DNA from: Escherichia coli
GTDB lineage: Bacteria > Pseudomonadota > Gammaproteobacteria > Enterobacterales > Enterobacteriaceae
Reading direction: 5' to 3' (one strand)
Length of the DNA: 64,000 nucleotides
NCBI RefSeq assembly: GCF_044647545.1
Contig: NZ_CP172818.1
This document shows positions 1 through 44,056 of this stretch, piece after piece (position 1 is the first letter of the stretch; the number at the start of each line of letters is the position of its first letter). The translations under genes and the position numbers were made by a program. The notes below the pieces were generated by a model. The model saw only the letters and a program-made list of their open reading frames with translations, did no database searches and had not been told where the DNA came from.

Positions 1-269
1 TTTTTAGCGGCGAGGCTGACACCCTTGTGCCGACACTGCTCAAATTAACTGACACAGGCGGAAGCGGTGGTATGGCAACGGGGATTGCTGTGCAAATTCT
101 TGATGCGCAAAGTCAGCAAGAAATCCCGCTCAATCAGGTCCTACCTCTTACGCCCTTAAAAGCCGGGGATAACACACTCAAATATCAACTTCGTTATAAG
201 TCCACAAAGGCGGGAGCAACGGGCGGTAATGCGACGGCGGTTCTCTATTTTGATCTGGTTTACCAGTGA
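1..269 (+). CDS. ycbU: Fimbrial-like subunit/adhesin, C-terminal fragment (gene begins upstream of window)
   Basis: Frame open from window edge to stop at 267-269; C-terminus ...ATAVLYFDLVYQ typical of chaperone-usher pilin subunits; position upstream of ycbV-ycbF-pyrD as in K-12 (recalled). Confidence 0.7.
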   Translation, partial: FSGEADTLVPTLLKLTDTGGSGGMATGIAVQILDAQSQQEIPLNQVLPLTPLKAGDNTLKYQLRYKSTKAGATGGNATAVLYFDLVYQ

Positions 270-276
270 AGGAGTG

Positions 277-792
277 ATGTTGAAACAGATAATCTGGATT
301 CTGTTCTTACTGGGATTAACGGGGGGCTGTGAGCTATTTGCCCATGATGGCACGGTCAACATTAGCGGATCGTTTCGCCGTAATACATGCGTGCTGGCAC
401 AGGATAGCAAGCAAATCAATGTGCAGTTAGGCGACGTCTCGCTGACACGTTTTTCTCATGGGAATTATGGCCCGGAGAAATCGTTCATCATTAATTTGCA
501 GGATTGCGGAACAGATGTCAGCACGGTTGACGTCACCTTTTCAGGAACCCCCGACGGAGTACAGAGCGAAATGCTGTCCATTGAAAGTGGTACGGATGCA
601 GCCAGTGGGCTGGCAATTGCAATTCTGGATGATGCGAAGATATTGATTCCGCTTAACCAGGCGAGTAAAGACTACAGCCTACATAGCGGTAAGGTGCCAT
701 TAACTTTTTACGCGCAATTGCGACCTGTCAATAGCGATGTGCAGTCGGGTAAAGTGAATGCCAGCGCGACATTTGTACTTCATTATGACTAA
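277..792 (+). CDS. ycbV: Fimbrial-like protein
   Basis: ATG at 277 gives MLKQIIWILFLLGLTGGCELFA (signal peptide-like); 171 aa; stop overlaps next gene start. Confidence 0.75.
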   Translation: MLKQIIWILFLLGLTGGCELFAHDGTVNISGSFRRNTCVLAQDSKQINVQLGDVSLTRFSHGNYGPEKSFIINLQDCGTDVSTVDVTFSGTPDGVQSEMLSIESGTDAASGLAIAILDDAKILIPLNQASKDYSLHSGKVPLTFYAQLRPVNSDVQSGKVNASATFVLHYD

Positions 793-1567
793 TACGTGGA
801 ACAGATTGGCGCTCTTGATTTTCGCCGTTTTATCGCTGCTGGTGGCGAGTGAATTGCAGGCAGGAGTGGTGGTCGGCGGAACGCGATTTATCTTTCCGGC
901 AGACAGAGATTCGATATCTATTTTATTGACTAATACCAGTCAGGAATCCTGGCTTATTAACAGTAAAATCAATCGCCCAACGCGTTGGGCTGGGGATGAA
1001 GCGTCGACAGTACCAGCACCATTACTGGCCGCTCCGCCACTTATTCTCCTGAAGCCCGGTACTACAGGCACATTGCGCTTGCTGAGAACGGAAAGCGACA
1101 TCTTGCCCGTGGATCGCGAAACGCTATTTGAGTTAAGCATTGCCAGCGTGCCATCCGGCAAAGTTGAAAATCAGAGCGTAAAAGTGGCGATGCGCTCGGT
1201 ATTTAAACTGTTCTGGCGACCCGAAGGTTTGCCGGGCGACCCGCTGGAAGCTTATCAACAATTACGCTGGACACGGAATTCGCAGGGTGTACAACTCACT
1301 AACCCAACGCCTTACTACATTAACCTGATTCAGGTGAGCGTAAATGGTAAAGCGTTAAGTAATGCGGGAGTTGTGCCACCTAAAAGCCAGCGTCAGACAA
1401 GCTGGTGTCAGGCTATAACACCGTGTCACGTCTCCTGGCGGACGATAAATGATTACGGCGGGTTGAGTTGCAAAGAAGGAGCAAAATCTGCCCTGAAACA
1501 GGCTCGGAAAACGTTTGCGCTTTTTTTGCCACAGGTCAATTCCCTTTTGGTCCGAACTCGCACATAA
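785..1567 (+). CDS. ycbF: Periplasmic pilus chaperone (start approximate)
   Basis: ATG at 785 gives MTNTWNRLALLIFAVLSLLVASELQAGVVVGGTRFIF, a PapD-like chaperone N-terminus; exact start and length not verified. Confidence 0.7.
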   Translation: MTNTWNRLALLIFAVLSLLVASELQAGVVVGGTRFIFPADRDSISILLTNTSQESWLINSKINRPTRWAGDEASTVPAPLLAAPPLILLKPGTTGTLRLLRTESDILPVDRETLFELSIASVPSGKVENQSVKVAMRSVFKLFWRPEGLPGDPLEAYQQLRWTRNSQGVQLTNPTPYYINLIQVSVNGKALSNAGVVPPKSQRQTSWCQAITPCHVSWRTINDYGGLSCKEGAKSALKQARKTFALFLPQVNSLLVRTRT

Positions 1568-1606
1568 TACGCCCCCGGTTTGCACACCGGGAATCCAGGA
1601 GAGTTC

Positions 1607-2617
1607 ATGTACTACCCCTTCGTTCGTAAAGCCCTTTTCCAGCTCGATCCAGAGCGCGCTCATGAGTTTACTTTTCAGCAATTACGCCGTATTACCGGAA
1701 CGCCGTTTGAAGCACTGGTGCGGCAGAAAGTGCCTGCGAAACCTGTTAACTGCATGGGCCTGACGTTTAAAAATCCGCTTGGTCTGGCAGCCGGTCTTGA
1801 TAAAGACGGGGAGTGCATTGACGCGTTAGGCGCGATGGGATTTGGATCGATCGAGATCGGTACCGTCACGCCACGTCCCCAGCCAGGTAATGACAAGCCG
1901 CGTCTCTTTCGTCTGGTAGATGCCGAAGGTTTGATCAACCGTATGGGCTTTAATAATCTTGGCGTTGATAACCTCGTAGAGAACGTAAAAAAAGCCCATT
2001 ATGACGGCGTTCTGGGTATTAACATCGGCAAAAATAAAGATACGCCGGTGGAGCAGGGTAAAGATGACTATCTGATTTGTATGGAAAAAATCTATGCCTA
2101 TGCGGGATATATCGCCATCAATATTTCATCGCCAAATACCCCAGGATTACGCACACTGCAATATGGTGAAGCGCTGGATGATCTCTTAACCGCGATTAAA
2201 AATAAGCAAAATGATTTGCAAGAGATGCACCATAAATATGTGCCGATCGCAGTGAAGATCGCGCCGGATCTTTCTGAAGAAGAATTGATCCAGGTTGCCG
2301 ATAGTTTAGTTCGCCATAATATTGATGGCGTTATTGCAACCAATACCACGCTCGATCGTTCTCTGGTTCAGGGAATGAAAAATTGTGATCAAACCGGTGG
2401 CTTAAGTGGTCGTCCGCTTCAGTTAAAAAGCACAGAAATTATTCGCCGCTTGTCACAGGAATTAAACGGTCGCTTACCGATCATCGGTGTTGGCGGCATT
2501 GACTCGGTTATCGCTGCGCGTGAAAAGATTGCTGCGGGGGCCTCACTGGTGCAAATTTATTCTGGTTTTATTTTTAAAGGTCCGCCGCTGATTAAAGAAA
2601 TCGTTACCCATATCTAA
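1607..2617 (+). CDS. pyrD: Dihydroorotate dehydrogenase (quinone)
   Basis: 336-aa ORF starting [21 protein letters not shown]; recognised as E. coli PyrD; GGAGAG RBS upstream. Confidence 0.95.
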
Positions 2618-2790
2618 TTATTTCTTCGAATTCCTCTTTATAAGATAATCAGGGCTTTATTTTAAGCCCTGGTTGTTTTATATTCATCACTGTTGCTTAT
2701 TTAGACATTTTGTACTTTTATTGTTGAGGTTATTAAGCGAAGCGACAATGGATTGTGTTGCTGCGGTTTTATAGGGTAGGGGAGAGGCAA

Positions 2791-3333
2791 ATGCGAATTA
2801 AACCAGACGATAACTGGCGTTGGTATTACGATGAAGAGCACGATCGAATGATGCTCGATTTAGCCAATGGTATGCTATTTCGCTCACGTTTTGCGCGCAA
2901 AATGTTGACTCCAGATGCCTTTTCTCCCGCAGGCTTTTGCGTTGACGACGCCGCGCTCTATTTCTCATTTGAAGAAAAATGCCGCGATTTTAATTTATCT
3001 AAAGAACAAAAAGCCGAACTGGTGCTTAATGCGCTGGTAGCAATTCGTTATCTCAAACCGCAAATGCCGAAAAGCTGGCATTTTGTTTCCCATGGTGAAA
3101 TGTGGGTGCCCATGCCGGGCGATGCGGCCTGCGTTTGGTTGAGCGACACTCACGAGCAAGTCAATTTGCTGGTCGTTGAATCTGGCGAAAATGCCGCACT
3201 ATGCCTGCTGGCACAACCCTGCGTTGTTATTGCGGGTCGCGCGATGCAGTTGGGCGACGCCATCAAAATCATGAACGACAGGCTGAAACCGCAGGTTAAT
3301 GTTGACAGCTTCAGCCTCGAACAGGCAGTTTAA
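2791..3333 (+). CDS. zapC: Cell division protein ZapC
   Basis: 180-aa ORF starting [24 protein letters not shown]; located after pyrD as in K-12. Confidence 0.9.
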
Positions 3334-4439
3334 CGCGTCAGCTTAAGTGCAGTCTTCGGTACACAACTACAGCAAAGAATAGTGCCATCATCACCCATTG
3401 CTGATTTTTTCAGCGGCGTGACTTCGCCTTCTAAAAGCTGAACACGGCAACTTCCACAAATGCCCGCGCGGCAAGAATAAGGGATACGAATTCCCTGATT
3501 TTCTAATTGCTCCAGCAGCACCTGTTGGTTATTTCCACGAAATGCCTGTCCCTGCCAGTCAATATCTACGTTTGCGTCCGGTTGTTGCGTGATGTTGGCA
3601 GTATCATCGGCGGCACCTGTGCCGTAAATTTTAGCTGGAGCCGTTGCCAGAATTTCCACCTCATCGCCAACGCGAATCACGCCGCTATTACGGGCAATTA
3701 AATTCTGACCAAAATCGACATCGCCGTTATCCTGGGCAGTACGGAAAGATTGCAGCGTTTTTAATGGTTCGCCTGCCGGATGTTTTTGCCCTTTTTCTGG
3801 GCTGACGGTGGTGAAAATACAGCGGCTACAAGGCTTAACCACATCAAACACGACATCACCAATGCGAATCACTTTCCAGCTATCTTCTTCCCAGGTCGAT
3901 GCACCGGAAACCACCAGATTGGGGCGGAATTGCTCCATTTTTACACTGGCCGGACAACGTTGTTGGAGATCACGTAACGAGGCCTCGTTAGCAAGAAGGT
4001 AAGGATAGCCATCAGCAAATGACAGGGGTACAGTGTTGTGGCGTTTCACGCGCCGGGTCATTTGTGGCCCCACCCAGCGTAATTGCACTTCGCGGGAGAA
4101 AAATCCACTTAGCCATTTGTTGATCGCGTCTGGCGCAATTCGCGCGGTAAAATGTGTGCCCCAAACTTCGGTTGGTGCGTCTTGTGTGGCGAAATCAGCA
4201 AAACGAACATATGCGCTACTGCCATCTGGTGCGGTGAGATGCAAGCCATCATGCACAGGTGAAGGAATAAACCGTACCATCTGGGGAAACTGGCGAGCAG
4301 TAATAAACGTACCGTCAGGTTCCGTGATCATAAAGATGCGATCGAAGGCCAGACCACTGACATCTGCCAGAGCATGTGTAAGACCAATGCCGCGCATCGA
4401 TTTAACAGGATGAATAAAAAGCCGGGTTAATGTCGCCAC
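3330..4439 (-). CDS. ycbX: MOSC/2Fe-2S ferredoxin-domain protein
   Basis: 369-aa [23 protein letters not shown]...; C-terminal CxxGxCGxC ferredoxin motif (CRAGICGSC). Confidence 0.9.
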
Positions 4440-12644: not shown

Positions 12645-13163
12645 TCAGAAGGCAGACGTATCCTGGAACAGACCGACTTTCAGGTCGCTGGCGGTATAGA
12701 TCAGACGACCATCAACCAGCACTTCGCCATCTGCCAGACCCATAATCAGACGACGATTAACAATGCGTTTAAAGTGAATACGGTAGGTCACTTTTTTCGC
12801 TGTCGGCAGTACCTGACCAGTGAATTTCACTTCGCCAACGCCCAGCGCGCGGCCTTTACCTTCGCCGCCCAGCCAGCCGAGGTAGAACCCTACCAGCTGC
12901 CACATTGCGTCCAGGCCCAGGCATCCCGGCATAACCGGATCGCCAATGAAGTGGCATCCGAAGAACCACAGATCCGGATTGATATCCAGCTCTGCTTCAA
13001 CATACCCTTTGTCGAAGTTACCACCCGTTTCGGTCATTTTGACCACACGGTCCATCATCAGCATGTTCGGTGCTGGCAATTGCGGGCCTTTAGCGCCAAA
13101 CAGTTCACCGCGACCAGAGGCAAGAAGGTCTTCTTTTGTATAGGATTCGCGTTTATCTACCAT
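12645..13163 (-). CDS. fabA: 3-hydroxydecanoyl-ACP dehydratase/isomerase
   Basis: 172-aa ORF from internal ATG ([23 protein letters not shown]...); the track ORF is an upstream in-frame extension. Confidence 0.95.
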
Positions 13164-13231
13164 GTTCTCTGTAAGCCTTATTTTATTGAAGCACGCAGGA
13201 TAGCTAACACGTGTACGCTGAACAAGTCCGA

Positions 13232-14992
13232 TCAGTTCGGAATAAACCAGTTCAGCCAACGTAATGGCCATGGAAAACGGTGACGTCCTTCCTGTTGCGA
13301 TGCTTGTGCGATACGTTCCTGGATGGTTTGCATCAGCGTCGTTTGGCCTTCGCCATCCCACACCAGATTTAATAATAACGGCAGTGCGTCAGTCACATCG
13401 TCTACTGCCCAGATGGTGAATTTGCCTTCTTCTACCGCTTTCACCAGTTCACTGTGAAGACTTAAATGGCGAACGTTAGCAGTGGGGATAATGACACCTT
13501 GTTTCCCCGTTAACTCACGTTGCTGGCAAATAGCAAAGAAGCCTTCGATTTTCTCATTTAAACCACCGACTGGCTGGGCGCGACCGAACTGATCGACTGA
13601 ACCTGTGATAGCGATACTCTGATTCACCGGCACATCGGCGAGGGCGCTGATCAGGGCGCAGAGTTCAGCCATCGAGGCACTATCGCCATCCACTTCACTG
13701 TATGACTGCTCAAATGTCAGCGATGCTGAGAAGGGGATCTGTTGCTCAAGCTGTAGTTCCGACATCAGGAACGCTTGCATGATCATCATCCCTTTCGCAT
13801 GGATATTGCCGCCAAGCTCCGCTTTGCGTTCGATGTCGGTGAATTCACCATCGCCAATATGCACAACGCAGCTAATGCGAGAAGGTTCGCCAAAAGCGCG
13901 TGGATGACCAGGAAATTCAATGACCGAAAGGGCGTTAATTTGCCCGATGCGTTCGCCTTCGGTTTCAATCAGGATTTGCTCCTGAAGGATCTCATCCTGC
14001 ATGCGTTCAGCGAGGAAACCTTCACGCCATTCACGCTGCTGCAGCATTAAGTTTAGCTGCTCGCCGGAGAAGGTGTCGCCATCGCACAGGGAGGCGACCT
14101 CTTTACACTGGCGGAGGATCCACTGCGGGCTAAGCGGAAGTGTTTCTTGTTCACCGGTGTAGCGGGCTGCTTCGCGGATAAGTACCGGCCAGGCATCCGC
14201 TCCCGGTGCAGGTAAGTGATTATGTCTTGCGGTCAATGTTACCCAGCGACACCACTGGCTTACTGACTCCGCATCGACAATCTGCAGAGTATCTTCAAAT
14301 TCGCTATAAATAGCCTGCTCTGAAAGCTCTGGTTCCATCTCCTGGAAATCAGCCAATGATTCGCGTTCGCCTACCAGAATGACTTTCAGCTTCAATGGCA
14401 TCGAAGGCACAGAGACGGGGAGAGGGCGCGACTCATCAAACGCAACCCAGTCAAAACGCTCGCGGTTAACGATATTTTTCAGCCGCATCCACAGCAGAGG
14501 TTGCGCCAGCAGTGTACGCAAAGAGATGATGAGAATACCGCCATTTGCCTGATGCACCAGACCAGGCTGCAGGGTAATGTCGCCATTAAACTGGCGCAGG
14601 CAGCCAAAGAGTTGTTCCGCTTCTACCCAGTCGGCAGCGACAACTTGCGTTAAAGTCGCAAAATTATCATCTGCACTCACTGCGTTACGTAAGCGGATGG
14701 TGTGCCCGGAAACCTCATAGTGACAGCCCACCAGTTGGCCTGCATCGCTTTGTAGCGCACGCGCGGCATCGGCAATAAGATTCAGATACTCAGACTCTTC
14801 CGGGGCCTTCGCCAGCATAAAAGAGGAGGATGCTCGCGTATGCAGCAACTGCTCCAGCGCAAATTGCAGTCGCGGTTGAGTATCACTGAATAAAGGATCG
14901 TTTTCGTCAATCAAATGTGGCTGAGCAAATATTTCCTGATAGCTATCGGTATCAGGAACCAGGTCACGCCATGCAAGTTTCGTAATGGTCAA
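13232..14992 (-). CDS. ycbZ: Lon-like protease (protease domain without AAA+ module)
   Basis: 586-aa [27 protein letters not shown]...; Lon proteolytic-domain-like C-terminal half. Confidence 0.9.
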
Positions 14993-15177
14993 AGTTGATG
15001 TTTTTTAGTCTGTTGTCAAAGCCGCGATTATACCGTAACCGGCACTGCAGCACACGTAGAAAGCACCGACAATACTCCTGGCATGGGCGTTAAAGCTCAC
15101 AGGATGGAGATTCTTTTCTTCACTGGCCTAAAAAGCTGATATTCTGTAAAGAGTTACACGGTAACATTGAGATCGCT

Positions 15178-21164: not shown

Positions 21165-23219
21165 ATGGAACTGAAAGCGACAACGCTTGGAAAACGTCTG
21201 GCACAGCACCCTTACGATCGGGCGGTGATCCTCAATGCCGGGATTAAAGTCTCCGGCGATCGCCACGAATACCTTATTCCTTTCAATCAATTACTGGCGA
21301 TTCACTGTAAGCGCGGTCTGGTATGGGGCGAGCTGGAATTTGTACTGCCGGACGAAAAAGTGGTGCGTCTGCACGGCACCGAATGGGGCGAGACGCAGCG
21401 TTTTTACCATCATCTTGATACTCACTGGCGGCGGTGGAGTGGGGAGATGGGCGAAATTGCGTCTGGCGTTTTACGTCAGCAACTGGATTTGATTGCCACG
21501 CGCACCGGAGAAAATAAATGGCTGACGCGTGAGCAAACCTCTGGTGTGCAGCAACAAATCCGCCAGGCTTTGTCGGCGTTGCCGTTGCCGGTTAACCGAC
21601 TGGAAGAATTCGATAACTGCCGTGAGGCGTGGCGTAAATGTCAGGCCTGGTTGAAGGACATTGAAGGCGCTCGGTTGCAGCATAATCAGGCGTATACCGA
21701 AGCCATGCTTACCGAGTATGCGGATTTTTTCCGCCAGGTCGAGTCTTCACCGCTGAATCCGGCGCAGGCCCGGGCAGTCGTTAATGGCGAGCATTCTTTG
21801 TTAGTGCTGGCTGGTGCAGGAAGCGGAAAAACGTCGGTGCTGGTGGCCCGTGCAGGCTGGTTGCTGGCACGTGGTGAAGCGTCCCCTGAGCAAATTTTAT
21901 TGCTGGCGTTTGGTCGCAAAGCCGCTGAAGAGATGGACGAGCGTATTCGCGAACGGCTACATACCGAAGACATTACCGCACGCACATTTCATGCGCTGGC
22001 GCTGCATATTATTCAGCAGGGCAGCAAAAAAGTTCCGATAGTCAGCAAACTGGAAAATGATACCGCTGCCCGTCATGAACTTTTTATTGCTGAGTGGCGC
22101 AAGCAATGCAGCGAAAAGAAAGCGCAGGCGAAGGGCTGGCGGCAATGGCTGACGGAAGAAATGCAGTGGTCAGTGCCAGAAGGTAACTTCTGGGATGATG
22201 AAAAATTACAGCGTCGTCTTGCCTCACGCATCGATCGTTGGGTAAGTCTGATGCGGATGCACGGTGGTGCACAGGCAGAAATGATTGCCAGTGCACCCGA
22301 AGAGATTCGCGATCTGTTCAGTAAACGTATCAAGTTGATGGCTCCGTTATTAAAAGCCTGGAAAGGTGCGCTGAAGGCAGAAAACGCTGTCGATTTTTCG
22401 GGCCTTATTCACCAGGCGATTGTGATTCTGGAGAAAGGTCGCTTTATCAGCCCGTGGAAGCATATTCTGGTTGATGAATTTCAGGATATCTCGCCGCAGC
22501 GCGCAGCGTTGTTAGCGGCATTACGCAAGCAAAACAGTCAGACGACGTTGTTCGCCGTTGGTGATGACTGGCAGGCGATTTATCGCTTCAGCGGTGCGCA
22601 AATGTCGCTCACCACCGCTTTCCATGAAAACTTTGGTGAAGGTGATCGCTGCGATTTAGACACGACTTACCGTTTTAACAGTCGTATCGGTGAGGTGGCA
22701 AACCGGTTTATTCAGCAGAACCCAGGCCAGCTGAAAAAGCCGCTAAACAGCTTAACCAATGGAGACAAAAAAGCCGTCACGTTATTGGATGAGAGCCATC
22801 TTGACGCTTTGCTGGATAAGCTCTCTGGTTATGCCAAACCGGAAGAGCGCATTCTGATCCTGGCGCGTTACCATCACATGAGGCCTGCCAGCCTGGAAAA
22901 AGCGGCAACACGCTGGCCGAAGTTGCAAATCGACTTTATGACCATTCATGCCAGCAAAGGGCAACAGGCGGATTACGTCATCATCGTTGGCTTGCAGGAG
23001 GGGAGTGATGGTTTTCCGGCTGCGGCGCGGGAGTCGATTATGGAAGAGGCGCTACTGCCACCGGTTGAGGATTTCCCGGACGCTGAAGAACGGCGGTTAA
23101 TGTACGTGGCGCTGACCCGGGCACGCCATCGGGTATGGGCACTGTTTAACAAAGAGAATCCCTCTCCATTTGTCGAAATACTGAAAAATCTGGATGTGCC
23201 GGTGGCGAGAAAACCGTAA
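21165..23219 (+). CDS. helD: DNA helicase IV
   Basis: 684-aa ORF from ATG at 21165 (MELKATTLGKRLAQHPYDRAV...); Walker A GAGSGKTSV; UvrD-like motifs. Confidence 0.9.
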   Translation: MELKATTLGKRLAQHPYDRAVILNAGIKVSGDRHEYLIPFNQLLAIHCKRGLVWGELEFVLPDEKVVRLHGTEWGETQRFYHHLDTHWRRWSGEMGEIASGVLRQQLDLIATRTGENKWLTREQTSGVQQQIRQALSALPLPVNRLEEFDNCREAWRKCQAWLKDIEGARLQHNQAYTEAMLTEYADFFRQVESSPLNPAQARAVVNGEHSLLVLAGAGSGKTSVLVARAGWLLARGEASPEQILLLAFGRKAAEEMDERIRERLHTEDITARTFHALALHIIQQGSKKVPIVSKLENDTAARHELFIAEWRKQCSEKKAQAKGWRQWLTEEMQWSVPEGNFWDDEKLQRRLASRIDRWVSLMRMHGGAQAEMIASAPEEIRDLFSKRIKLMAPLLKAWKGALKAENAVDFSGLIHQAIVILEKGRFISPWKHILVDEFQDISPQRAALLAALRKQNSQTTLFAVGDDWQAIYRFSGAQMSLTTAFHENFGEGDRCDLDTTYRFNSRIGEVANRFIQQNPGQLKKPLNSLTNGDKKAVTLLDESHLDALLDKLSGYAKPEERILILARYHHMRPASLEKAATRWPKLQIDFMTIHASKGQQADYVIIVGLQEGSDGFPAAARESIMEEALLPPVEDFPDAEERRLMYVALTRARHRVWALFNKENPSPFVEILKNLDVPVARKP

Positions 23220-34433: not shown

Positions 34434-35978
34434 ATGTGGGATGTCATTGATTTATCGCGCTGGCAGTTTGCACTGACCGCGCTGTATCACTTTTTATTTG
34501 TACCCCTTACCCTGGGGCTGATTTTTTTGCTGGCTATCATGGAAACCATTTACGTGGTCACCGGCAAAACAATCTACCGCGATATGACGCGCTTCTGGGG
34601 TAAGCTCTTCGGTATCAACTTTGCTCTTGGCGTGGCTACCGGCCTGACCATGGAGTTTCAGTTTGGTACTAACTGGTCATTCTATTCCAACTATGTGGGC
34701 GATATTTTTGGCGCACCGCTGGCAATGGAAGCATTAATGGCCTTCTTCCTCGAATCCACCTTTGTCGGGCTGTTCTTCTTCGGCTGGCAGCGGCTGAATA
34801 AATACCAGCACCTGCTGGTGACGTGGCTGGTGGCGTTCGGTTCAAATCTCTCTGCATTGTGGATATTGAATGCCAACGGTTGGATGCAATACCCGACCGG
34901 TGCGCATTTTGATATCGACACCCTGCGTATGGAGATGACCAGTTTCAGCGAGTTGGTCTTTAACCCGGTCAGCCAGGTGAAATTTGTGCACACCGTAATG
35001 GCGGGATACGTGACCGGGGCCATGTTTATTATGGCGATCAGCGCCTGGTATTTACTGCGCGGACGGGAGCGCGATGTCGCATTACGCTCGTTTGCCATCG
35101 GTTCCGTCTTCGGTACTCTGGCGATTATCGGTACGCTGCAACTCGGAGACAGTTCTGCGTATGAAGTCGCGCAAGTACAACCGGTAAAACTGGCGGCGAT
35201 GGAAGGGGAGTGGCAAACAGAACCTGCACCTGCACCGTTCCATGTGGTTGCCTGGCCGGAACAGGATCAAGAGCGTAACGCCTTTGCCATCAAAATTCCC
35301 GCGCTGCTAGGGATCCTCGCCACTCACTCATTAGATAAACCCGTGCCGGGTCTGAAGAATTTGATGGCTGAAACCTACCCACGCTTGCAACGCGGACGTA
35401 TGGCCTGGCTGTTAATGCAGGAAATATCGCAAGGCAATCGTGAGCCGCATGTGTTGCAGGCATTCCGGGAGCTGGAAGGCGACCTGGGTTACGGCATGTT
35501 GCTCTCCCGCTATGCGCCGGATATGAATCATGTCACAGCCACACAGTACCAGGCGGCGATGCGTGGCGCGATACCTCAGGTTGCGCCGGTATTCTGGAGT
35601 TTCCGCATCATGGTAGGCTGTGGTTCCCTGCTGTTACTGGTGATGCTGATTGCGCTTGTCCAGACGCTGCGTGGCAAAATCGACCAGCATCGCTGGGTGC
35701 TGAAAATGGCGCTCTGGAGTTTGCCGCTTCCGTGGATTGCGATTGAAGCCGGATGGTTTATGACCGAGTTTGGTCGTCAGCCGTGGGCGATACAGGACAT
35801 CTTACCGACATACTCCGCGCACTCCGCCTTAACCACAGGACAACTGGCTTTCTCACTGATCATGATCGTAGGGCTTTACACCCTGTTCTTAATCGCCGAA
35901 GTCTACCTGATGCAGAAATATGCCCGTCTGGGGCCGAGCGCGATGCAGAGTGAACAACCGACGCAGCAACAGGGGTAA
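34434..35978 (+). CDS. appC: Cytochrome bd-II oxidase subunit I
   Basis: 514-aa [34 protein letters not shown]... Confidence 0.95.
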
Positions 35979-35989
35979 AGGAGAAAATC

Positions 35990-37126
35990 ATGTTTGATTA
36001 TGAAACATTGCGCTTCATCTGGTGGCTGCTGATTGGCGTGATCCTGGTGGTCTTTATGGTCTCCGACGGATTTGACATGGGGATCGGCTGTCTGCTGCCG
36101 CTGGTGGCGCGTAATGATGATGAACGTCGGATAGTGATAAACAGCGTTGGCGCGCACTGGGAAGGCAATCAGGTCTGGTTGATCCTCGCAGGTGGGGCAT
36201 TATTTGCCGCCTGGCCCAGAGTGTATGCAGCGGCGTTTTCCGGCTTTTATGTGGCGATGATCCTGGTGCTGTGCTCGCTGTTCTTCCGCCCGCTGGCCTT
36301 TGATTATCGCGGAAAAATTGCCGATGCACGCTGGCGTAAAATGTGGGATGCCGGTCTGGTCATCGGCAGTCTGGTGCCGCCGGTAGTCTTCGGTATCGCC
36401 TTCGGCAACTTGTTGCTCGGCGTGCCGTTTGCCTTTACACCGCAATTACGCGTGGAGTATCTCGGCAGCTTCTGGCAACTGCTGACGCCATTCCCTTTAT
36501 TGTGCGGATTGCTCAGCCTTGGGATGGTGATTTTGCAAGGTGGCGTCTGGTTACAACTGAAAACTGTTGGTGTGATTCATCTGCGTTCACAGCTCGCGAC
36601 CAAACGCGCCGCACTACTGGTGATGCTGTGCTTTTTGCTGGCGGGTTACTGGCTGTGGGTCGGTATTGATGGCTTTGTACTGCTCGCCCAGGATGCTAAC
36701 GGTCCTTCCAATCCGTTAATGAAACTGGTGGCAGTGCTACCTGGTGCCTGGATGAATAATTTTGTCGAATCGCCCGTTTTGTGGATCTTCCCGCTGCTGG
36801 GGTTCTTCTGCCCATTGCTGACGGTGATGGCGATTTATCGTGGTCGCCCGGGTTGGGGATTTTTGATGGCATCATTGATGCAATTTGGCGTGATTTTCAC
36901 GGCAGGCATCACGCTGTTCCCCTTTGTCATGCCGTCAAGCGTGAGTCTAATCTCCAGCCTGACGTTGTGGGACAGCACTTCCAGTCAGCTGACGCTGAGC
37001 ATTATGTTGGTAATCGTGCTGATATTTTTGCCTATTGTGTTGCTCTACACTCTCTGGAGCTACTACAAAATGTGGGGACGCATGACGACAGAAACTCTCC
37101 GCCGTAACGAAAACGAGCTGTACTAA
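35990..37126 (+). CDS. appB: Cytochrome bd-II oxidase subunit II
   Basis: 378-aa [36 protein letters not shown]... Confidence 0.95.
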
Positions 37127-37138
37127 GGAGCAGGAACA

Positions 37139-37231
37139 ATGTGGTATTTACTTTGGTTCGTCGGCATTTTGTTGATGTGTTCGCTCTCCACCCTTGTGTT
37201 GGTATGGCTGGACCCGCGTCTGAAAAGTTAA
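37139..37231 (+). CDS. appX: Cytochrome bd-II small subunit AppX (YccB)
   Basis: 30-aa hydrophobic ORF MWYLLWFVGILLMCSLSTLVLVWLDPRLKS with AGGAG RBS; too short for the supplied track. Confidence 0.8.
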   Translation: MWYLLWFVGILLMCSLSTLVLVWLDPRLKS

Positions 37232-37240
37232 CGAACGTAA

Positions 37241-37272
37241 GCCTGATGTGGCGCATTAGCATCGCATCAGGC
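37241..37272. repeat. REP-like palindrome / terminator hairpin after appCBX
   Basis: gcctgatg...catcaggc inverted repeat. Confidence 0.55.
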
Positions 37273-37310
37273 AATCAATAATGTCAGATATGAAAAGCGG
37301 AAACATATCG

Positions 37311-38576
37311 ATGAAAGCGATCTTAATCCCATTCTTATCTCTTCTGATTCCGTTCACCCCGCAATCTGCATTCGCTCAGAGTGAGCCGGAGCTGAAGCTG
37401 GAAAGTGTGGTGATTGTCAGTCGTCATGGTGTGCGTGCTCCAACCAAGGCCACGCAACTGATGCAGGATGTCACCCCAGACGCATGGCCAACCTGGCCGG
37501 TAAAACTGGGTTGGCTGACACCGCGCGGTGGTGAGCTGATCGCCTATCTCGGACATTACCAACGCCAGCGTCTGGTAGCCGACGGATTGCTGACGAAAAA
37601 GGGCTGCCCGCAGCCTGGTCAGGTCGCGATTATTGCTGATGTCGACGAGCGTACCCGTAAAACAGGCGAAGCCTTCGCCGCCGGGCTGGCACCTGACTGT
37701 GCAATAACCGTACATACCCAGGCAGATACGTCCAGTCCCGATCCGTTATTTAATCCTCTAAAAAATGGCGTTTGCCAACTGGATAACGCGAATGTGACTG
37801 ACGCGATCCTCAGCAGGGCAGGAGGGTCAATTGCTGACTTTACCGGGCATCGGCAAACGGCGTTTCGCGAACTGGAACAGGTGCTTAATTTCCCACAATC
37901 AAACTTGTGCCTTAACCGTGAGAAACAGGACAAAAGTTGTTCATTAACGCAGGCATTACCATCGGAACTCAAGGTGAGCGCCGACAATGTCTCATTAACC
38001 GGTGCGGTAAGCCTAGCGTCAATGCTGACGGAGATATTTCTCCTGCAACAGGCACAAGGAATGCCGGAGCCGGGGTGGGGAAGGATCACTGATTCACACC
38101 AGTGGAACACCTTGCTAAGTTTGCATAACGCGCAATTTTATTTACTACAACGCACGCCAGAGGTTGCCCGCAGTCGCGCCACCCCGTTATTGGATTTGAT
38201 CATGGCAGCGTTGACGCCCCATCCACCGCAAAAACAGGCGTATGGTGTGACATTACCCACTTCAGTGCTGTTTATCGCCGGACACGATACTAATCTGGCA
38301 AATCTCGGCGGCGCACTGGAGCTCAACTGGACGCTTCCTGGTCAGCCGGATAACACGCCGCCAGGAGGTGAACTGGTGTTTGAACGCTGGCGTCGGCTTA
38401 GCGATAACAGCCAGTGGATTCAGGTTTCGCTGGTCTTTCAGACTTTACAGCAGATGCGTGATAAAACGCCGCTATCATTAAATACGCCGCCCGGAGAGGT
38501 GAAACTGACCCTGGCAGGATGTGAAGAGCGAAACGCGCAGGGCAGTGTTCGTTGGCCGGTTTTACGCAAATCGTGA
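37311..38576 (+). CDS. appA: Periplasmic phytase / acid phosphatase AppA with frameshifted, truncated C-terminus
   Basis: ATG at 37311 gives MKAILIPFLSLLIPFTPQSAFA signal peptide; RHGVRAP histidine acid phosphatase motif. Frame ends ...NAQGSVRWPVLRKS*, whereas the +1 frame reads LAGFTQIVNE (the expected AppA C-terminus, recalled) before running into GC-rich DNA. Confidence 0.85.
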   Translation: MKAILIPFLSLLIPFTPQSAFAQSEPELKLESVVIVSRHGVRAPTKATQLMQDVTPDAWPTWPVKLGWLTPRGGELIAYLGHYQRQRLVADGLLTKKGCPQPGQVAIIADVDERTRKTGEAFAAGLAPDCAITVHTQADTSSPDPLFNPLKNGVCQLDNANVTDAILSRAGGSIADFTGHRQTAFRELEQVLNFPQSNLCLNREKQDKSCSLTQALPSELKVSADNVSLTGAVSLASMLTEIFLLQQAQGMPEPGWGRITDSHQWNTLLSLHNAQFYLLQRTPEVARSRATPLLDLIMAALTPHPPQKQAYGVTLPTSVLFIAGHDTNLANLGGALELNWTLPGQPDNTPPGGELVFERWRRLSDNSQWIQVSLVFQTLQQMRDKTPLSLNTPPGEVKLTLAGCEERNAQGSVRWPVLRKS

Positions 38577-38581
38577 ATGAA

Positions 38582-38840
38582 CGGGGGGACGACGGGCGAC
38601 GGGGGCCGCGGGGAAGACGACGGGACGCGGGGCTATCCGCCAGCGCGGCTGTTCGCGTTGCGGGTCGCGGCGCGGGCCCCGTGGTGCGCCTGCCGCTGGG
38701 CGCCTGGCCTGCTCGGCCTGCGGGGGTTGGTGCGGCGGGGCCGCTTGTCCCGCCGGGCGCCGCGCGCGTCCGCGGGCGGCCGTCGGCGCTCGGCGCGGGC
38801 GGGCCGCGCCTCGGGGGCCGCCCCCCCCGGGCGCCTCTCC
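38582..38840. other. Compositionally foreign GC-rich block (about 85% GC) at the appA-cspH junction; origin unknown
   Basis: Counted 80-93% GC per 60-nt line against roughly 50% in flanks; G/C homopolymer runs (8 C at 38821-38828); open frames on both strands with Arg/Gly/Pro/Ala-rich translations and no RBS. Confidence 0.8.
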
Positions 38841-38841
38841 A

Positions 38842-39054
38842 TCAAGACAAATAAACATTTGCCGCTGTTGGTCCTCGCAGGCCATTTACGCGGCAAAATT
38901 CCACGCGTAATCCTGGTATAAGCACTTCTGCGTCGCGGGGAGTGAATGCGGAAATATGGACCTGGACTTCTTTACGACCGTCGGAGGGGATAATGAATCC
39001 TTTGCCGCTTTTGCGATCAAAGGTTTTGACAATTCCTGTCATTTTACGGGACAA
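38842..39054 (-). CDS. cspH: Cold-shock-like protein CspH
   Basis: 70-aa [40 protein letters not shown]... Confidence 0.9.
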
Positions 39055-39339
39055 ACAAATTCCTTACTGAAAATACTGCGCTGCACTATACGGGGTTAAT
39101 AAAATAAAGCCAGCGATATTTAAGACCGCCGGACGGCTAAAATAAAATTTGCTTAATCTCAATTATCATGCGTTAATAGCTGCGTCGGTTTGAAAGACAG
39201 ACAGCATACAAAGTAGTTTACTAAAGCAGTTCTCATTATCAGGCATTATCCCCTTCTTTTGAGTCTCTCTCCTGAACACTAAGTAGTTTCTGTATTAAAG
39301 CCCTGTTTGCCGAAAGGCCCAAAATGAAGGAAGTAAAAT

Positions 39340-39552
39340 ATGTCTAATAAAATGACTGGTTTAGTAAAATGGTTTAACGCAGATAAAGGTTTTGGCTTTA
39401 TCACTCCTGATGATGGCAGCAAAGACGTTTTCGTCCATTTCACCGCCATCCAGAGCAATGAATTCCGCACGCTGAACGAAAATCAGAAAGTTGAATTTTC
39501 TATTGAGCAGGGGCAACGTGGTCCCGCGGCAGCGAACGTTGTTACGCTCTAA
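39340..39552 (+). CDS. cspG: Cold-shock protein CspG
   Basis: 70-aa [40 protein letters not shown]... (RNP1-like KGFGFI). Confidence 0.95.
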
Positions 39553-39725
39553 GGTTGCCGTTATTACTCAACATCTCCATTTCCGCTGTCCATGTTGTCA
39601 TGGTTCACAGTACCGCACATCGGCATTCGATGTGACGGAGCGAAATCCTTTAGGGGCAAAGTGTATTTTTTGTAAATCGACGATGATCACCTTTGATAAC
39701 GTCGCGCTGCAAATACGCACTGAGC

Positions 39726-39956
39726 ATGCGCCGCTGGATTTCACAAAATAATATCAGGCTCCCTCGTGGAGCCTTTTTTATATCTGCCTTATTTTTCTTC
39801 AACGCTGTATGTATAGTAAGCGATAACCTGTTGATTATTGAATCTTTCGGGGAGATGGCTTATAACATTTCTTACCTGACCAGGGTACCGGGAACCAACA
39901 CCTTACTGGCGTGTTGCTGTCATTTAAGACCAGAAGAGGTTAACAGTGAATATTGA
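39726..39956 (+). CDS. ymcE: Small protein YmcE (cold-shock locus)
   Basis: 76-aa ORF MRRWISQNNIRLPRGAFFISALFFFNAVCIV... Confidence 0.7.
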   Translation: MRRWISQNNIRLPRGAFFISALFFFNAVCIVSDNLLIIESFGEMAYNISYLTRVPGTNTLLACCCHLRPEEVNSEY

Positions 39957-40119
39957 AGAGTTAAAAAAACAAGCCGAAACGGAAATCGCTGACTTTATCG
40001 CGCAAAAAATCGCCGAGCTGAACAAGAATACAGGGAAAGAAGTCTCTGAAATTCGCTTCACCGCACGAGAAAAAATGACCGGGCTTGAAAGTTATGATGT
40101 CAAAATCAAAATAATGTGA
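39946..40119 (+). CDS. gnsA: GnsA (secG-null suppressor, unsaturated fatty-acid regulator)
   Basis: GTG start at 39946; 57-aa ORF (M)NIEELKKQAETEIADFIAQKIAELNKNTGKEV...; under the track threshold. Confidence 0.75.
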   Translation: MNIEELKKQAETEIADFIAQKIAELNKNTGKEVSEIRFTAREKMTGLESYDVKIKIM

Positions 40120-40167
40120 TTTTGTGAACATCACCCCGTGCGAGGTGATGTTCCGCTTGTTGCTAAT

Positions 40168-41241
40168 TTAGTGACCAATCATTGGCGCTTGCGGAATTAA
40201 GCGTCGGTACAATTCCTGCGGCACCGGGCTTTGCCATACTCCCGCATACATTGCGTAACCAATCACCGCAAACATAATCCCCAGAACCAGTAGCGTCATT
40301 AACCAGCCAGACAACGCAAAGGCTTTTTTATTTGCCGCAGGTTTTTGCAGTGAAAAGGTTAATGTTGAGGCTACCGGACATGACTCTACGCAAGTCATAC
40401 AGCCGGTACATTCCACTGTTCGTACCTGAATTAATTTATCGACCGGGATCCGTGATGGGCAATTTTTTGCGCATTTGCCACAGTCGATACAACTTTCGGC
40501 ATTGCGACGAATCTTAAACGGCGATAATAGCGAAACCATGCCCATCAGCGCGCCATATGGGCAAAGATAACGACACCAGGCATGGCGAATAAACAGGCTG
40601 GCAATCAGCAAAACGGTCACGCTGATTAATGTCGCGGTCCCCATATGACGAAAGAAATCGAGCATTTTAACGTCCATCACCACGCTGTAGGGCGACAACA
40701 TAAAATAGTGAATCGCCTGAGCGGGCATCAATAACGCGATATAGAGAAAAAAACTCAACAGCAAATACTTCACGCCGCGCAGAGGAATATCCAGCCAGCG
40801 GGGAAGGACACATTGCCGACCAAACAGTTTGTTACCGAGATCGCCGATTAATTCAGAAAGCGTACCAACCGGGCATAACCATGAGCAAAAGGCCTTTTTG
40901 AGTAATAGACTGATGACGATAAAAGCGACCAATAACAGCATCGCGGCGGCGTGGACGGACGGTAACTGACCTGTTGCAAGGCTATATTTCAGATTCATCA
41001 GACCGGCAATCGGTAGCCAGCCTTCGATACCTCCCGGTCTGGCGACAAATGTCGTACTACCTGCCGTTTCGTAATAGCGCACCCAATACCAGAACGTGAT
41101 GGCAATATAAATATTCATTGCCAACAGTAATAATTGCGTCGCTTTACGCCAGGTCGTGGCATTGCGCCAGTCATTCCACGGTAATTTGCCGCCCGTCGTG
41201 CCTGGCCGCCGCTGCCAGCGGGTTCTTTTTTTCTCTGCCAT
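40168..41241 (-). CDS. yccM: Membrane-bound 4Fe-4S ferredoxin-like protein (NapH/MauN family)
   Basis: 357-aa ORF MAEKKRTRWQRRPGTTGGKLPWNDW...; two CxxCxxCxxxCP clusters. Confidence 0.9.
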   Translation of the reverse strand: MAEKKRTRWQRRPGTTGGKLPWNDWRNATTWRKATQLLLLAMNIYIAITFWYWVRYYETAGSTTFVARPGGIEGWLPIAGLMNLKYSLATGQLPSVHAAAMLLLVAFIVISLLLKKAFCSWLCPVGTLSELIGDLGNKLFGRQCVLPRWLDIPLRGVKYLLLSFFLYIALLMPAQAIHYFMLSPYSVVMDVKMLDFFRHMGTATLISVTVLLIASLFIRHAWCRYLCPYGALMGMVSLLSPFKIRRNAESCIDCGKCAKNCPSRIPVDKLIQVRTVECTGCMTCVESCPVASTLTFSLQKPAANKKAFALSGWLMTLLVLGIMFAVIGYAMYAGVWQSPVPQELYRRLIPQAPMIGH

Positions 41242-41323
41242 GATTTTGCCAGTCCGTTAAGTTGCATACCAAATGCCACTATTCTAGTTGTTCTTAACTG
41301 GCTGATATTGATTCAAATCGCGT

Positions 41324-44056
41324 TCAGGTCTTTCTTATTAACCATGCTTCCAGAGCGGCAACACTGCGTGTAATTTCTTCGTGTGGAAGGGGGGCAGATA
41401 ATGGCTGCTGCTCCAGTTGTGCGCAAAGCTGGCTGGCGCTACGCATTCCCAGACTCGAGCAACTGCTTTTTAGCTGATGTGCGGCACGCTTTATTTTTTC
41501 GCTGTTCTGGCTGGCGCGGGCAATGTCGATTTCATCGAGAAGCGGCAGGGCATGTTGTTTAAATAATATCAGCCATTCGTGGATCTTCTCCGTCCCCATC
41601 AACTGAGCATCTTCATTGAGTTGCGATACATCCAGCGGTTGATCGTTATTGACTTGTAGTTGGAGATAGTGCGCCAGTAACTGACCGAGCACTTCACGCG
41701 GCACCGGTTTAGGGATAATCCCGCGAAATAATGAACTGGTACGCTGGCGCAACGTTTCGTCGATGACATGAGCGCTAAAGCCAATCAAAACCAGCGACGG
41801 ATATTGCTGTGCCAGTTGCCGGGCAAGCGTGATGCCGTCGATATCGGGCAGATCAAAATCCACCAGTGCGGCAGCAAACGGTTCACTATTTTGCAACGTC
41901 TCTATCGCGTGCGCGGCATTTCCTACCGCAACGACCTGCGCACCACTGGTAGTCAGCATCTCGACGGTAATTCGCTGGGTTAGCGGGTTATCTTCAATTA
42001 ACAGCAAACGTAAACCGTCCAGACGCACCGCCTGATTGACTGTTTTTGGCACGGGAGCAGTGGCAACACGTAACGGCAAGCGTAAACAAAAACAGCTTCC
42101 AACTTCCGGCGTGCTGGTGGCGCTCAGTTCGCCGCCCATCGCCTGGGCCAGACGGCTACTGATAGTCAGCCCCAGCCCGGTGCCGCCGCGTTTGCCGCTT
42201 ACCTGCACAAATGGCTGGAAGATTTCTGCCAGTTTCGCGGGATCAATACCGCAGCCGCTGTCTTCCACTTCGACCAGCCATTGCTCGCCATCAGTGCGGC
42301 TACGTAAAACGATCTGCCCTTCGTCAGTAAAACGCAGGGCGTTGCTCAACAGGTTGGTTATAACCTGACGAATACGTCGCGGATCGCCCATTAACGCGGT
42401 CGGTACATCGTCGGCAATTGCTGTTGCCAGGTGAATCGGGCGACCTTTAACCCGTCCGCTCATTAATTGCAGGGTACTTTCCAGCAGCGGGCGCGGTTCA
42501 AAGGGCTCATCGCTGACCGAAACATTCTTGCCACCCGCTTCGATAGCCGAATAATCGAGAATATCGTTGAGGATGGTCAGCAACGATTCACCAGAGTCGG
42601 TAATTGCCCGCAAATCATCACGCTGGGCATTAAGTGCGGGGTTATCTGCCAGCAGTTGCGCGGTGCCAAGAATACCGTACAGCGGTGTGCGGATCTCATG
42701 GCTCATCGCCGCCAGAAACGCCGATTTTGCCTGGCTGGCTTTTTCTGCTTCCGCCCGTGCCTGTCGGTGTTCTATCACCAGTTCCTGCAATTCAGCTGTA
42801 CGCGCTTTGACCTGCGCCGCCAGCTGTTCACGGTGGCGATTCAGTGCATGAACACTGCTGCGAAACGCATCCATCAGCCGCCCGATGGTGTCCAGCTCCC
42901 GCACGCCAGCGGTTTCCGGGAAAGGGGAGTTGATATCACCGTCCAGCAGCCGTTGCAGCGCCTGCGTTTGTTCGGCAAGTGGACGCGTGACTGAGCGATA
43001 AACCACGCGCCAGAGGATCAGAATCAGTGCGCAAAGTGAAACCATCCCCAGCAATAACAGGCTGTATTGCCCGCGTGCACTGGCTTTTTCCAGATGCGCC
43101 AGTCCGTGCTGATTACGCAGCTCAATGGTGTCGACCAGCTGACTGACTTCGCTACTAAACTGCGCGAACTGGGCGATGTTATTTTGGGCGAGAGTTTGCA
43201 GGCGATTGCTGATTTCACTGTCCTGCTGATACAGCGCCAGCAAATCGCTATATTGGCTAACGGTAGTTAACGTTGTTGCGACCTGAGCACGAACTCCCGG
43301 ATCTTCAATGCGTATTTGCCGACGTTGCAGAATTTTCACCGCATTATTGAGCTGGTGTTCCAGCGTTGCTGCATTTTTCTGGATCTGCTCCAGCCCAAGA
43401 TTCATCACCATTTGCTGCACCCGCAGGGCGCTAAGGCGCAGTTCATTCATCTGGTTAACATACTCAAGATCGATATCAATCAGCCGATCGAGTGCACTTT
43501 CTGCGGCCTGACGCTGATGTTGTTCGATCAAATCGTAAATCCCGGCCTGGGTCGCTCCGGCGGAAGTTGCCGCATTATTCGCCTGACCTTGCGCCAGGCG
43601 TGCGATTTCATCGGCGGCGGCGACTATCTGCTGACTGAGTCGCTGTTGTTGCTGGCGCAGTTGCAAACGCTGCCCCACCAGTTCCCCTTGCTGACGTAAC
43701 GAACGGGAGATCTCCTGCTCCTGTTGTTCAATAGCGGTGGTATCAAAACCTTGTTCCCGTAACGCTTGCAGCAACGCATTAATCTTCAGGCTTTGTGCGG
43801 TGAGCATTCGCCCCTGCGCCTGCCACATCTTTTCGTTATCGGCACTGGTCAGGTTCTGCGCGGCGAAAAGTTCCCAGGCGCTGGCTTCGCTCAACTGGCG
43901 CGCCATATTCATGGTAGGAATCAATGCCTGAGTGTTGTCTTTTTCCACTTGGCTGATAAAGCGCAGGTTGTACCATCCCACCAGGGTACTGGTCAGGGTT
44001 AACAGCGCCATCAGGGCAAAGCCCATCCAGAGTCTTCGGGTCAGGGTTAAATTCAC
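41324..44056 (-). CDS. torS: TMAO sensor hybrid histidine kinase TorS (start approximate)
   Basis: Long ORF with HisKA (SHEIRTPL), HATPase, receiver and HPt regions; probable GTG start at 44056 giving (M)[18 protein letters not shown]; start codon choice not verified. Confidence 0.85.

Follow-up and report, generated by a model that had tools for sequence, protein, structure and literature searches.

In Escherichia coli the etk, etp and gfc genes have been described as a variable 'virulence gene group', confined for example to the STc28-related part of phylogroup B2 (PMC8715443), and the variable presence of the cluster has been discussed elsewhere as well (PMC6678207). The group 4 capsule (G4C) region of strain K-12 MG1655 corresponds to b0981-b0988 (etk, etp, gfcEDCBA and IS1D), and the MG1655 record gives the order appA, etk, etp, gfcE, gfcD, gfcC, gfcB, gfcA, IS1D (insA4/insB4), cspH, exactly as given in a preliminary description of the DNA studied here. 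A second arrangement, in which appA lies directly beside cspH and etk, etp, gfc and IS1 are missing, is found in an ST648 strain (NZ_CP008697), in ECONIH1 (NZ_CP009859) and in FDAARGOS_497 (NZ_CP033850). In these three genomes appA is 1311 nt long (436 aa), reads through ARIPAC-ALHQDK and overlaps the 3' end of cspH with its last 13 nt, so that no intergenic spacer exists there. The C-terminus of AppA also distinguishes the two arrangements, ending in ...PACSL in K-12 and in ...PACALHQDK in genomes without gfc.

The window, that is the whole stretch of 64,000 nt analyzed here, was aligned to 15 kb of MG1655. Two homology arms were obtained, one joining K-12 positions 1-3889 to window positions 34694-38581 with 98.0% identity and the other joining K-12 12963-15001 to window 38841-40879 with 99.0% identity, and the capsule island between them has no counterpart: the homology with K-12 ends at 38581 and restarts at 38841, and 9073 bp of K-12 are skipped. 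The flanking genes, appCB-appX-appA on one side and cspH-cspG-ymcF-ymcE-gnsA-yccM on the other, are collinear in the two sequences at 98-99% identity, and the difference from the K-12 capsule region consists of the 9073 bp between the homology arms, which the window lacks. Searching the K-12 island against all 64 kb by blastn and tblastx returned a 33-nt chance match only, which bears out the earlier observation that nothing similar to etk, etp, gfc or IS1 is present in the window. As regards membership in the group 4 capsule systems, coding sequences for etk, etp, gfcE and gfcABCD are absent between appA and cspH. The two genes converge, and 265 nt separate the appA stop (38576) from the cspH stop (38842), in agreement with the distance of about 265 bp reported before.

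The absence of etk-etp-gfcEDCBA and of IS1 is an inherited, ordinary state of the lineage and not an event of this strain; it is a common polymorphism and is already known. A 1.8-kb query over the region found matches in 5422 of the 5426 complete RefSeq E. coli genomes, and in 1674 of the 5426 (~31%) appA is directly contiguous with cspH through a single conserved junction. The natural junction, taken as a 501-nt query, maps 501-to-501 with 98.0-100% identity in exactly those 1674 genomes, and in the remaining ones it breaks at positions 242 and 250-253. Of the 5426 complete genomes, 3742 carry the 7.7-kb stretch of K-12 that runs from etk to gfcA, and locus-positive and tight-junction genomes together account for 5416 of the 5426. 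The two sets complement each other almost exactly, so that a genome with the tight junction does not have the locus at another place either, which argues for absence rather than for relocation.

The preliminary description had proposed a precise deletion or replacement at this locus, and the part of that claim that stands is the absence of the locus and of the IS1. A strain-specific event, by which the 9-10 kb of the G4C locus and the IS1 would have been precisely removed or replaced in a K-12-like ancestor, is in keeping with the K-12 gene order, which is as described, and with the 9073 bp of K-12 that find no counterpart in the window. However, we assign it next to no probability, given that the same junction occurs in 1674 of 5426 genomes at 98-100% identity and that all the closest relatives of the window are already without the locus. 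The IS1, moreover, is a K-12-type feature. When the CspH protein of the window was looked up exactly in public assemblies, two neighborhoods only were found among the 629 contigs read: in one gfcA-gfcB-gfcC-gfcD adjoin cspH without an IS1, and in the other a 436-aa appA overlaps cspH. For capsule biology the missing locus brings nothing new, being a polymorphism of an accessory locus, and K-12 is a poor reference for the 'expected' gene order in ST648-type strains; presumably the same applies to B2/F-type strains generally, an extension that follows our own assignment.

Judging from sequence identity, the window belongs to a clone of the ECONIH1 / FDAARGOS_497 type, which was already without the capsule locus. 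Identity to FDAARGOS_497 amounts to 99.98% in each of its arms, and the likeness to the haplotype without gfc includes the same gene order, ~99.98% identity over 64 kb, an identical cspH, the lack of etk, etp, gfc and IS1, and the ycbF and torS pseudogenes, which are held in common. The window differs from this haplotype in that 19 nt of the junction are replaced by 253 nt of 86% G+C and in that appA is frameshifted by a 1-nt deletion. It therefore agrees with the haplotype in its flanks, but the 13-nt overlap without spacer is lost because of the block. The spacer had been taken for 265 bp of plain appA-cspH gap; this reading has to be abandoned, for what lies there is the 86% G+C block and not natural intergenic DNA.

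Apart from the block, the first 50 kb of the window show five differences only from ECONIH1, namely 3 substitutions, the single-base loss in appA and, where the alignment meets the right edge of the block, one mismatch with a gap. When ECONIH1, FDAARGOS_497 and the whole collection are taken as reference, four changes in the 64 kb are private to the window: a SNP, two small deletions (of 1 and 2 nt) and the block. The SNP, a C>A at 22230 in helD, changes HelD by L356I, and an exact look-up of the resulting protein in the public assembly collection found no record. The 2-nt deletion removed an AT at 56182, in the interval that separates ymdF from rutG, and is shared by no complete E. coli genome, the best identity being 99.3%; the site is immediately 5' of a CCGCCGG-TAACC-CCGGCGG hairpin, the ymdF/rutG terminator. 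An extra T at 1468 is common to other genomes of the clone and is not private.

The coordinates of the features discussed are collected in Table 1. The start of appA in the window is the same as the annotated start in the compared loci, and the private deletion leaves the gene with 421 codons instead of the 436 found in the clone, changing the C-terminus of AppA from ...NAQGMCSLAGFTQIVNEARIPACALHQDK to ...NAQGSVRWPVLRKS, followed by the stop. This shortening does not agree with the earlier assertion of an expected length for every other gene, which is contradicted also by the ycbF and torS pseudogenes. The deletion occurs in none of the 5419 matching complete genomes (best identity 99.5%), and truncated AppA, of either 421 or 431 aa, was found nowhere in the public assembly collection, in which the intact 436-aa AppA of the clone, serving as positive control, is present in 4201 blocks. 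Whether frameshifted or read through, AppA loses the Cys in ...GMCSL... and/or the one in ...IPAC; according to the published structure of AppA, these cysteines are engaged in the disulfide bonds C382-C391 and C133-C408 of the mature protein. Taking the sequence as written, appA is a pseudogene, and if the sequence is real the consequence would be a loss of AppA function and not a gain, two cysteines near the C-terminus having disappeared.

Table 1. Features at and around the junction between appA and cspH (positions in the window)
Feature	Position	Strand	Basis or remark
appA (acid phosphatase/phytase), frameshifted	37311..38576	+	translation; alignment to ST648 and FDAARGOS_497
Site of private 1-nt deletion (one T at 38544; GGGCATGTG -> GGGCAGTG)	38544..38545		alignment; 38 nt upstream of the block
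Orphan block, 253 nt, 86% G+C	38582..38834	.	alignment to natural junction
Sole G-quadruplex motif of canonical form in the 64 kb, GGGGGGACGACGGGCGACGGGGGCCGCGGGG	38583..38613	+	motif in the block
CTCTCCA, bases of the natural junction that separate the replaced hairpin from the cspH stop	38835..38841	.	clone identity resumes here
cspH, intact, 70 aa	38842..39054	-	identical protein in genomes with and without gfc
cspG with cspA-type thermoregulator leader (39184 onward)	39340..39552	+	ORF, annotation, Rfam

The junction sequence that the block replaces is a 19-nt hairpin, GCACGCATACCGGCGTGCG, which has a 6-bp stem and encodes the ARIPAC of AppA. The base counts of the block are G123 C94 T26 A10, and an interval of 250 nt placed on it reaches 85.6% G+C (z = 6.5), against a mean of 51.6%, an SD of 5.2% and a maximum of 63.6% elsewhere in the 64 kb. 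Its ten A's are all located at or before 38642 and its T's all at or after 38634; with the A's confined to the left and the T's to the right, the longest T-free run of the window (55 nt, 38579-38633; the next longest has 39) borders on its longest run without A (198 nt, 38643-38840; the next longest has 49). This arrangement suggests that a single A-poor type of sequence supplied both parts of the block, in opposite orientations, but the inverted repeats between the two parts do not exceed 76-92% over 12-21 nt. Dinucleotide counts are near those expected from the base composition, and the left junction of the block is clean.

In net terms 234 nt are gained, a number divisible by 3, so that the block is open in the frame of appA and ends at the natural appA stop, but the deletion at 38544 breaks this frame through the block and appA stops at 38576. 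All six frames of the block are open for the simple reason that no stop codon is possible without an A on one of the two strands. The G-quadruplex motif listed in Table 1 is likewise a by-product of composition.

A relative of the block was searched for in prokaryotic, viral, plasmid, metagenomic and protein collections. No relative was found by blastn (11-nt words) in the 5426 E. coli genomes and their plasmids, nor was there any match in 50,697 phage records, and PLSDB gave a single chance match in Massilia (63 nt, 78% identity, E = 5e-3). Exact words of 58, 22, 22 and 24 nt taken from the block were all absent from IMG/VR, and a 22-mer was absent both from 100,044 species-representative genomes (GTDB) and from the JGI metagenomes; a 20-mer gave 8 and 23 seeds in these same two collections (31), none of which extends past 20-31 nt. 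The six frames, concatenated and compared with 5.8 billion protein clusters, produced 0 matches at E <= 1e-3, and the six candidate ORFs of the block were not found by exact look-up in the public assembly collection. Six words of 16-18 nt did not appear in a full-text literature search. In Rfam the block had no match, either within a 1.1-kb query or alone at E <= 10, conserved rRNA regions being included. Since truncated AppA, the ORFs spanning the block and HelD L356I occur in no public assembly, we consider the allele to be a singleton.

Several identities for the block were considered and rejected. A mobile element (IS or MITE) does not agree with the lack of a target-site duplication, of terminal inverted repeats and of further copies, as the only repeats present are imperfect and driven by composition. 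As a structured RNA or a REP-BIME-type repeat the block has no Rfam match, and its folds on the two strands give z-scores of +0.46 and +1.32 against dinucleotide shuffles. Horizontally acquired coding DNA was discarded in view of the missing protein homologue and of a weak period-3 signal (A+T counts 16/5/16). A copy of the window or of the K-12 island hypermutated by transitions (A>G / T>C) was also dismissed, the best purine/pyrimidine agreement being 65%, which equals the background. A terminator scan found none at the junction, neither in the window nor in ST648.

We consider the block to be non-functional filler, most likely produced as an artifact of sequencing, assembly or sequence handling at the hairpin, and we put the probability of this reading at roughly 0.55-0.6. 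What leads us to it is the combination of a singleton allele, its linkage to a nearby indel and its position on a hairpin. If the consensus was corrupted locally at the junction hairpin, the block and the appA deletion would both follow naturally. We estimate at ~0.4% (3 x 80/64000) the chance that one of the three other private changes falls within 40 nt of the block. A deletion at a distance of 38 nt therefore indicates a common local origin of the two lesions, which is what a consensus gone wrong at this spot would produce. Hairpins are found at or beside the block and also the second private indel, the AT loss. On the other hand, we know of no error of a standard sequencing platform that yields 253 nt of mixed G/C, and the clean left junction argues against an artifact. 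The in-frame gain of 234 nt would also fit a real event, though it is expected one time in three by chance. Vertebrate genomes, rDNA spacers and herpesvirus genomes, which lie outside the collections searched, have an A-poor, very GC-rich style that the block resembles, and a real donor could thus exist; this is the main ground for keeping a donor in consideration.

It is possible, if unlikely, that the block is a real and recent one-off insertion of foreign high-GC DNA, similar to a CpG island or rDNA spacer of the host or of another eukaryote, or coming from a GC-rich virus or an unsampled organism. The junction hairpin, a plausible fragile site, would then be the place where illegitimate recombination or break repair took up such DNA, the 1-nt deletion being a product of the same error-prone repair; the insert would have no function of its own and would abolish that of AppA. 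The clean left junction and the net gain in frame are compatible with this history, as are the T-free and then A-free segments, which look like pieces of one A-poor type in opposite orientations; besides, the quality of the window is high elsewhere, 3 other private differences being all that it shows, and a donor among eukaryotes or herpesviruses would lie outside the collections searched. Against these points it must be considered that no donor was found in the prokaryotic, viral, plasmid, metagenomic or protein collections, that no rRNA match was obtained in Rfam, that the clone is represented by thousands of assemblies, none of which has this allele, and that 86% G+C is, to our knowledge, higher than the average of any bacterial genome; nor do we know of any pathway by which E. 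coli routinely captures such filler DNA. With filler DNA at illegitimate-recombination junctions the block has in common that it is a short non-homologous segment, without mobile-element ends, at a single site and in a single lineage. It differs from filler-DNA captures because no donor was found, its composition is far outside that of the host genome and an indel lies nearby, and the block is known from this sequence alone. A narrower and less probable version is that, at the hairpin between appA and cspH, a clinical-type clone took up a piece of eukaryotic DNA resembling a CpG island or an rDNA spacer of the host, or else ultra-GC-rich DNA from some other unsampled source. Capture of host DNA by bacteria is reportedly rare, a human L1 fragment in Neisseria gonorrhoeae being a case; if true, the present one would be a rare documented capture of non-homologous foreign DNA in the E. 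coli chromosome.

Lower still we rank a deliberate or in-silico origin of the block and of the small indels private to the window, in a synthetic, engineered, edited or simulated sequence. The private alleles (truncated AppA, HelD L356I and the ORFs of the block) are in no public collection although the backbone is nearly identical to public genomes, the block is statistically near to a random sequence of its own composition, and the private changes are an unusual mix of a SNP, a 1-nt deletion, a 2-nt deletion and a block. However, an unpublished isolate would be equally missing from the collections, the block is unlike any known scar, cassette or vector, and no reason is apparent for engineering a clinical ST648-type background at appA. 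That the block is a functional novelty, either as a 78-residue Arg/Gly/Ala/Pro-rich insertion close to the AppA C-terminus or as a structured RNA or G-quadruplex in the 3' region of cspH, seems to us very improbable. It is true that the block is open in the appA frame up to the natural stop and that it contains a canonical G-quadruplex motif, but the frame is broken by the upstream deletion and the six open frames are owed simply to the absence of A; furthermore the block has no protein homologue, folds no better than its shuffles, has no match in Rfam and is a singleton without conservation.

The importance of the block is chiefly one of quality control. As written, it makes appA a pseudogene and would give rise to spurious ORF calls. 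If it is real, its biological interest would lie in the capture of foreign, possibly host-derived, DNA, and cspH would gain a GC-rich 3' flank.

Some further features of the window were observed. CspH is identical in the haplotypes with and without gfc, and its last codons differ synonymously (CTC TCT TAA with gfc versus TTG TCT TGA without, at window positions 38842-38860); homology between the haplotypes therefore spans the stop codon and breaks immediately beyond it. Upstream of cspG, the leader at 39184-39400 corresponds to the Rfam family RF01766 with 75.6 bits, against a gathering score of 78, and the slight deficit is explained by the query having ended at 39400. A second and very weak thermoregulator match lies upstream of cspH, at 39023-39126 on the minus strand (E = 2.2). 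As to the two pseudogenes, ycbF (~758-1496) is annotated as frameshifted in ECONIH1, and torS (41312-44055, minus strand) is frameshifted in ECONIH1, FDAARGOS_497 and ST648; no difference between the window and ECONIH1 occurs across either gene, indicating that they are pseudogenes at the level of the clone. Finally, an AT-rich island at 51800-53200 (32-36% G+C) corresponds to the YccE-family gene of the reference annotation.
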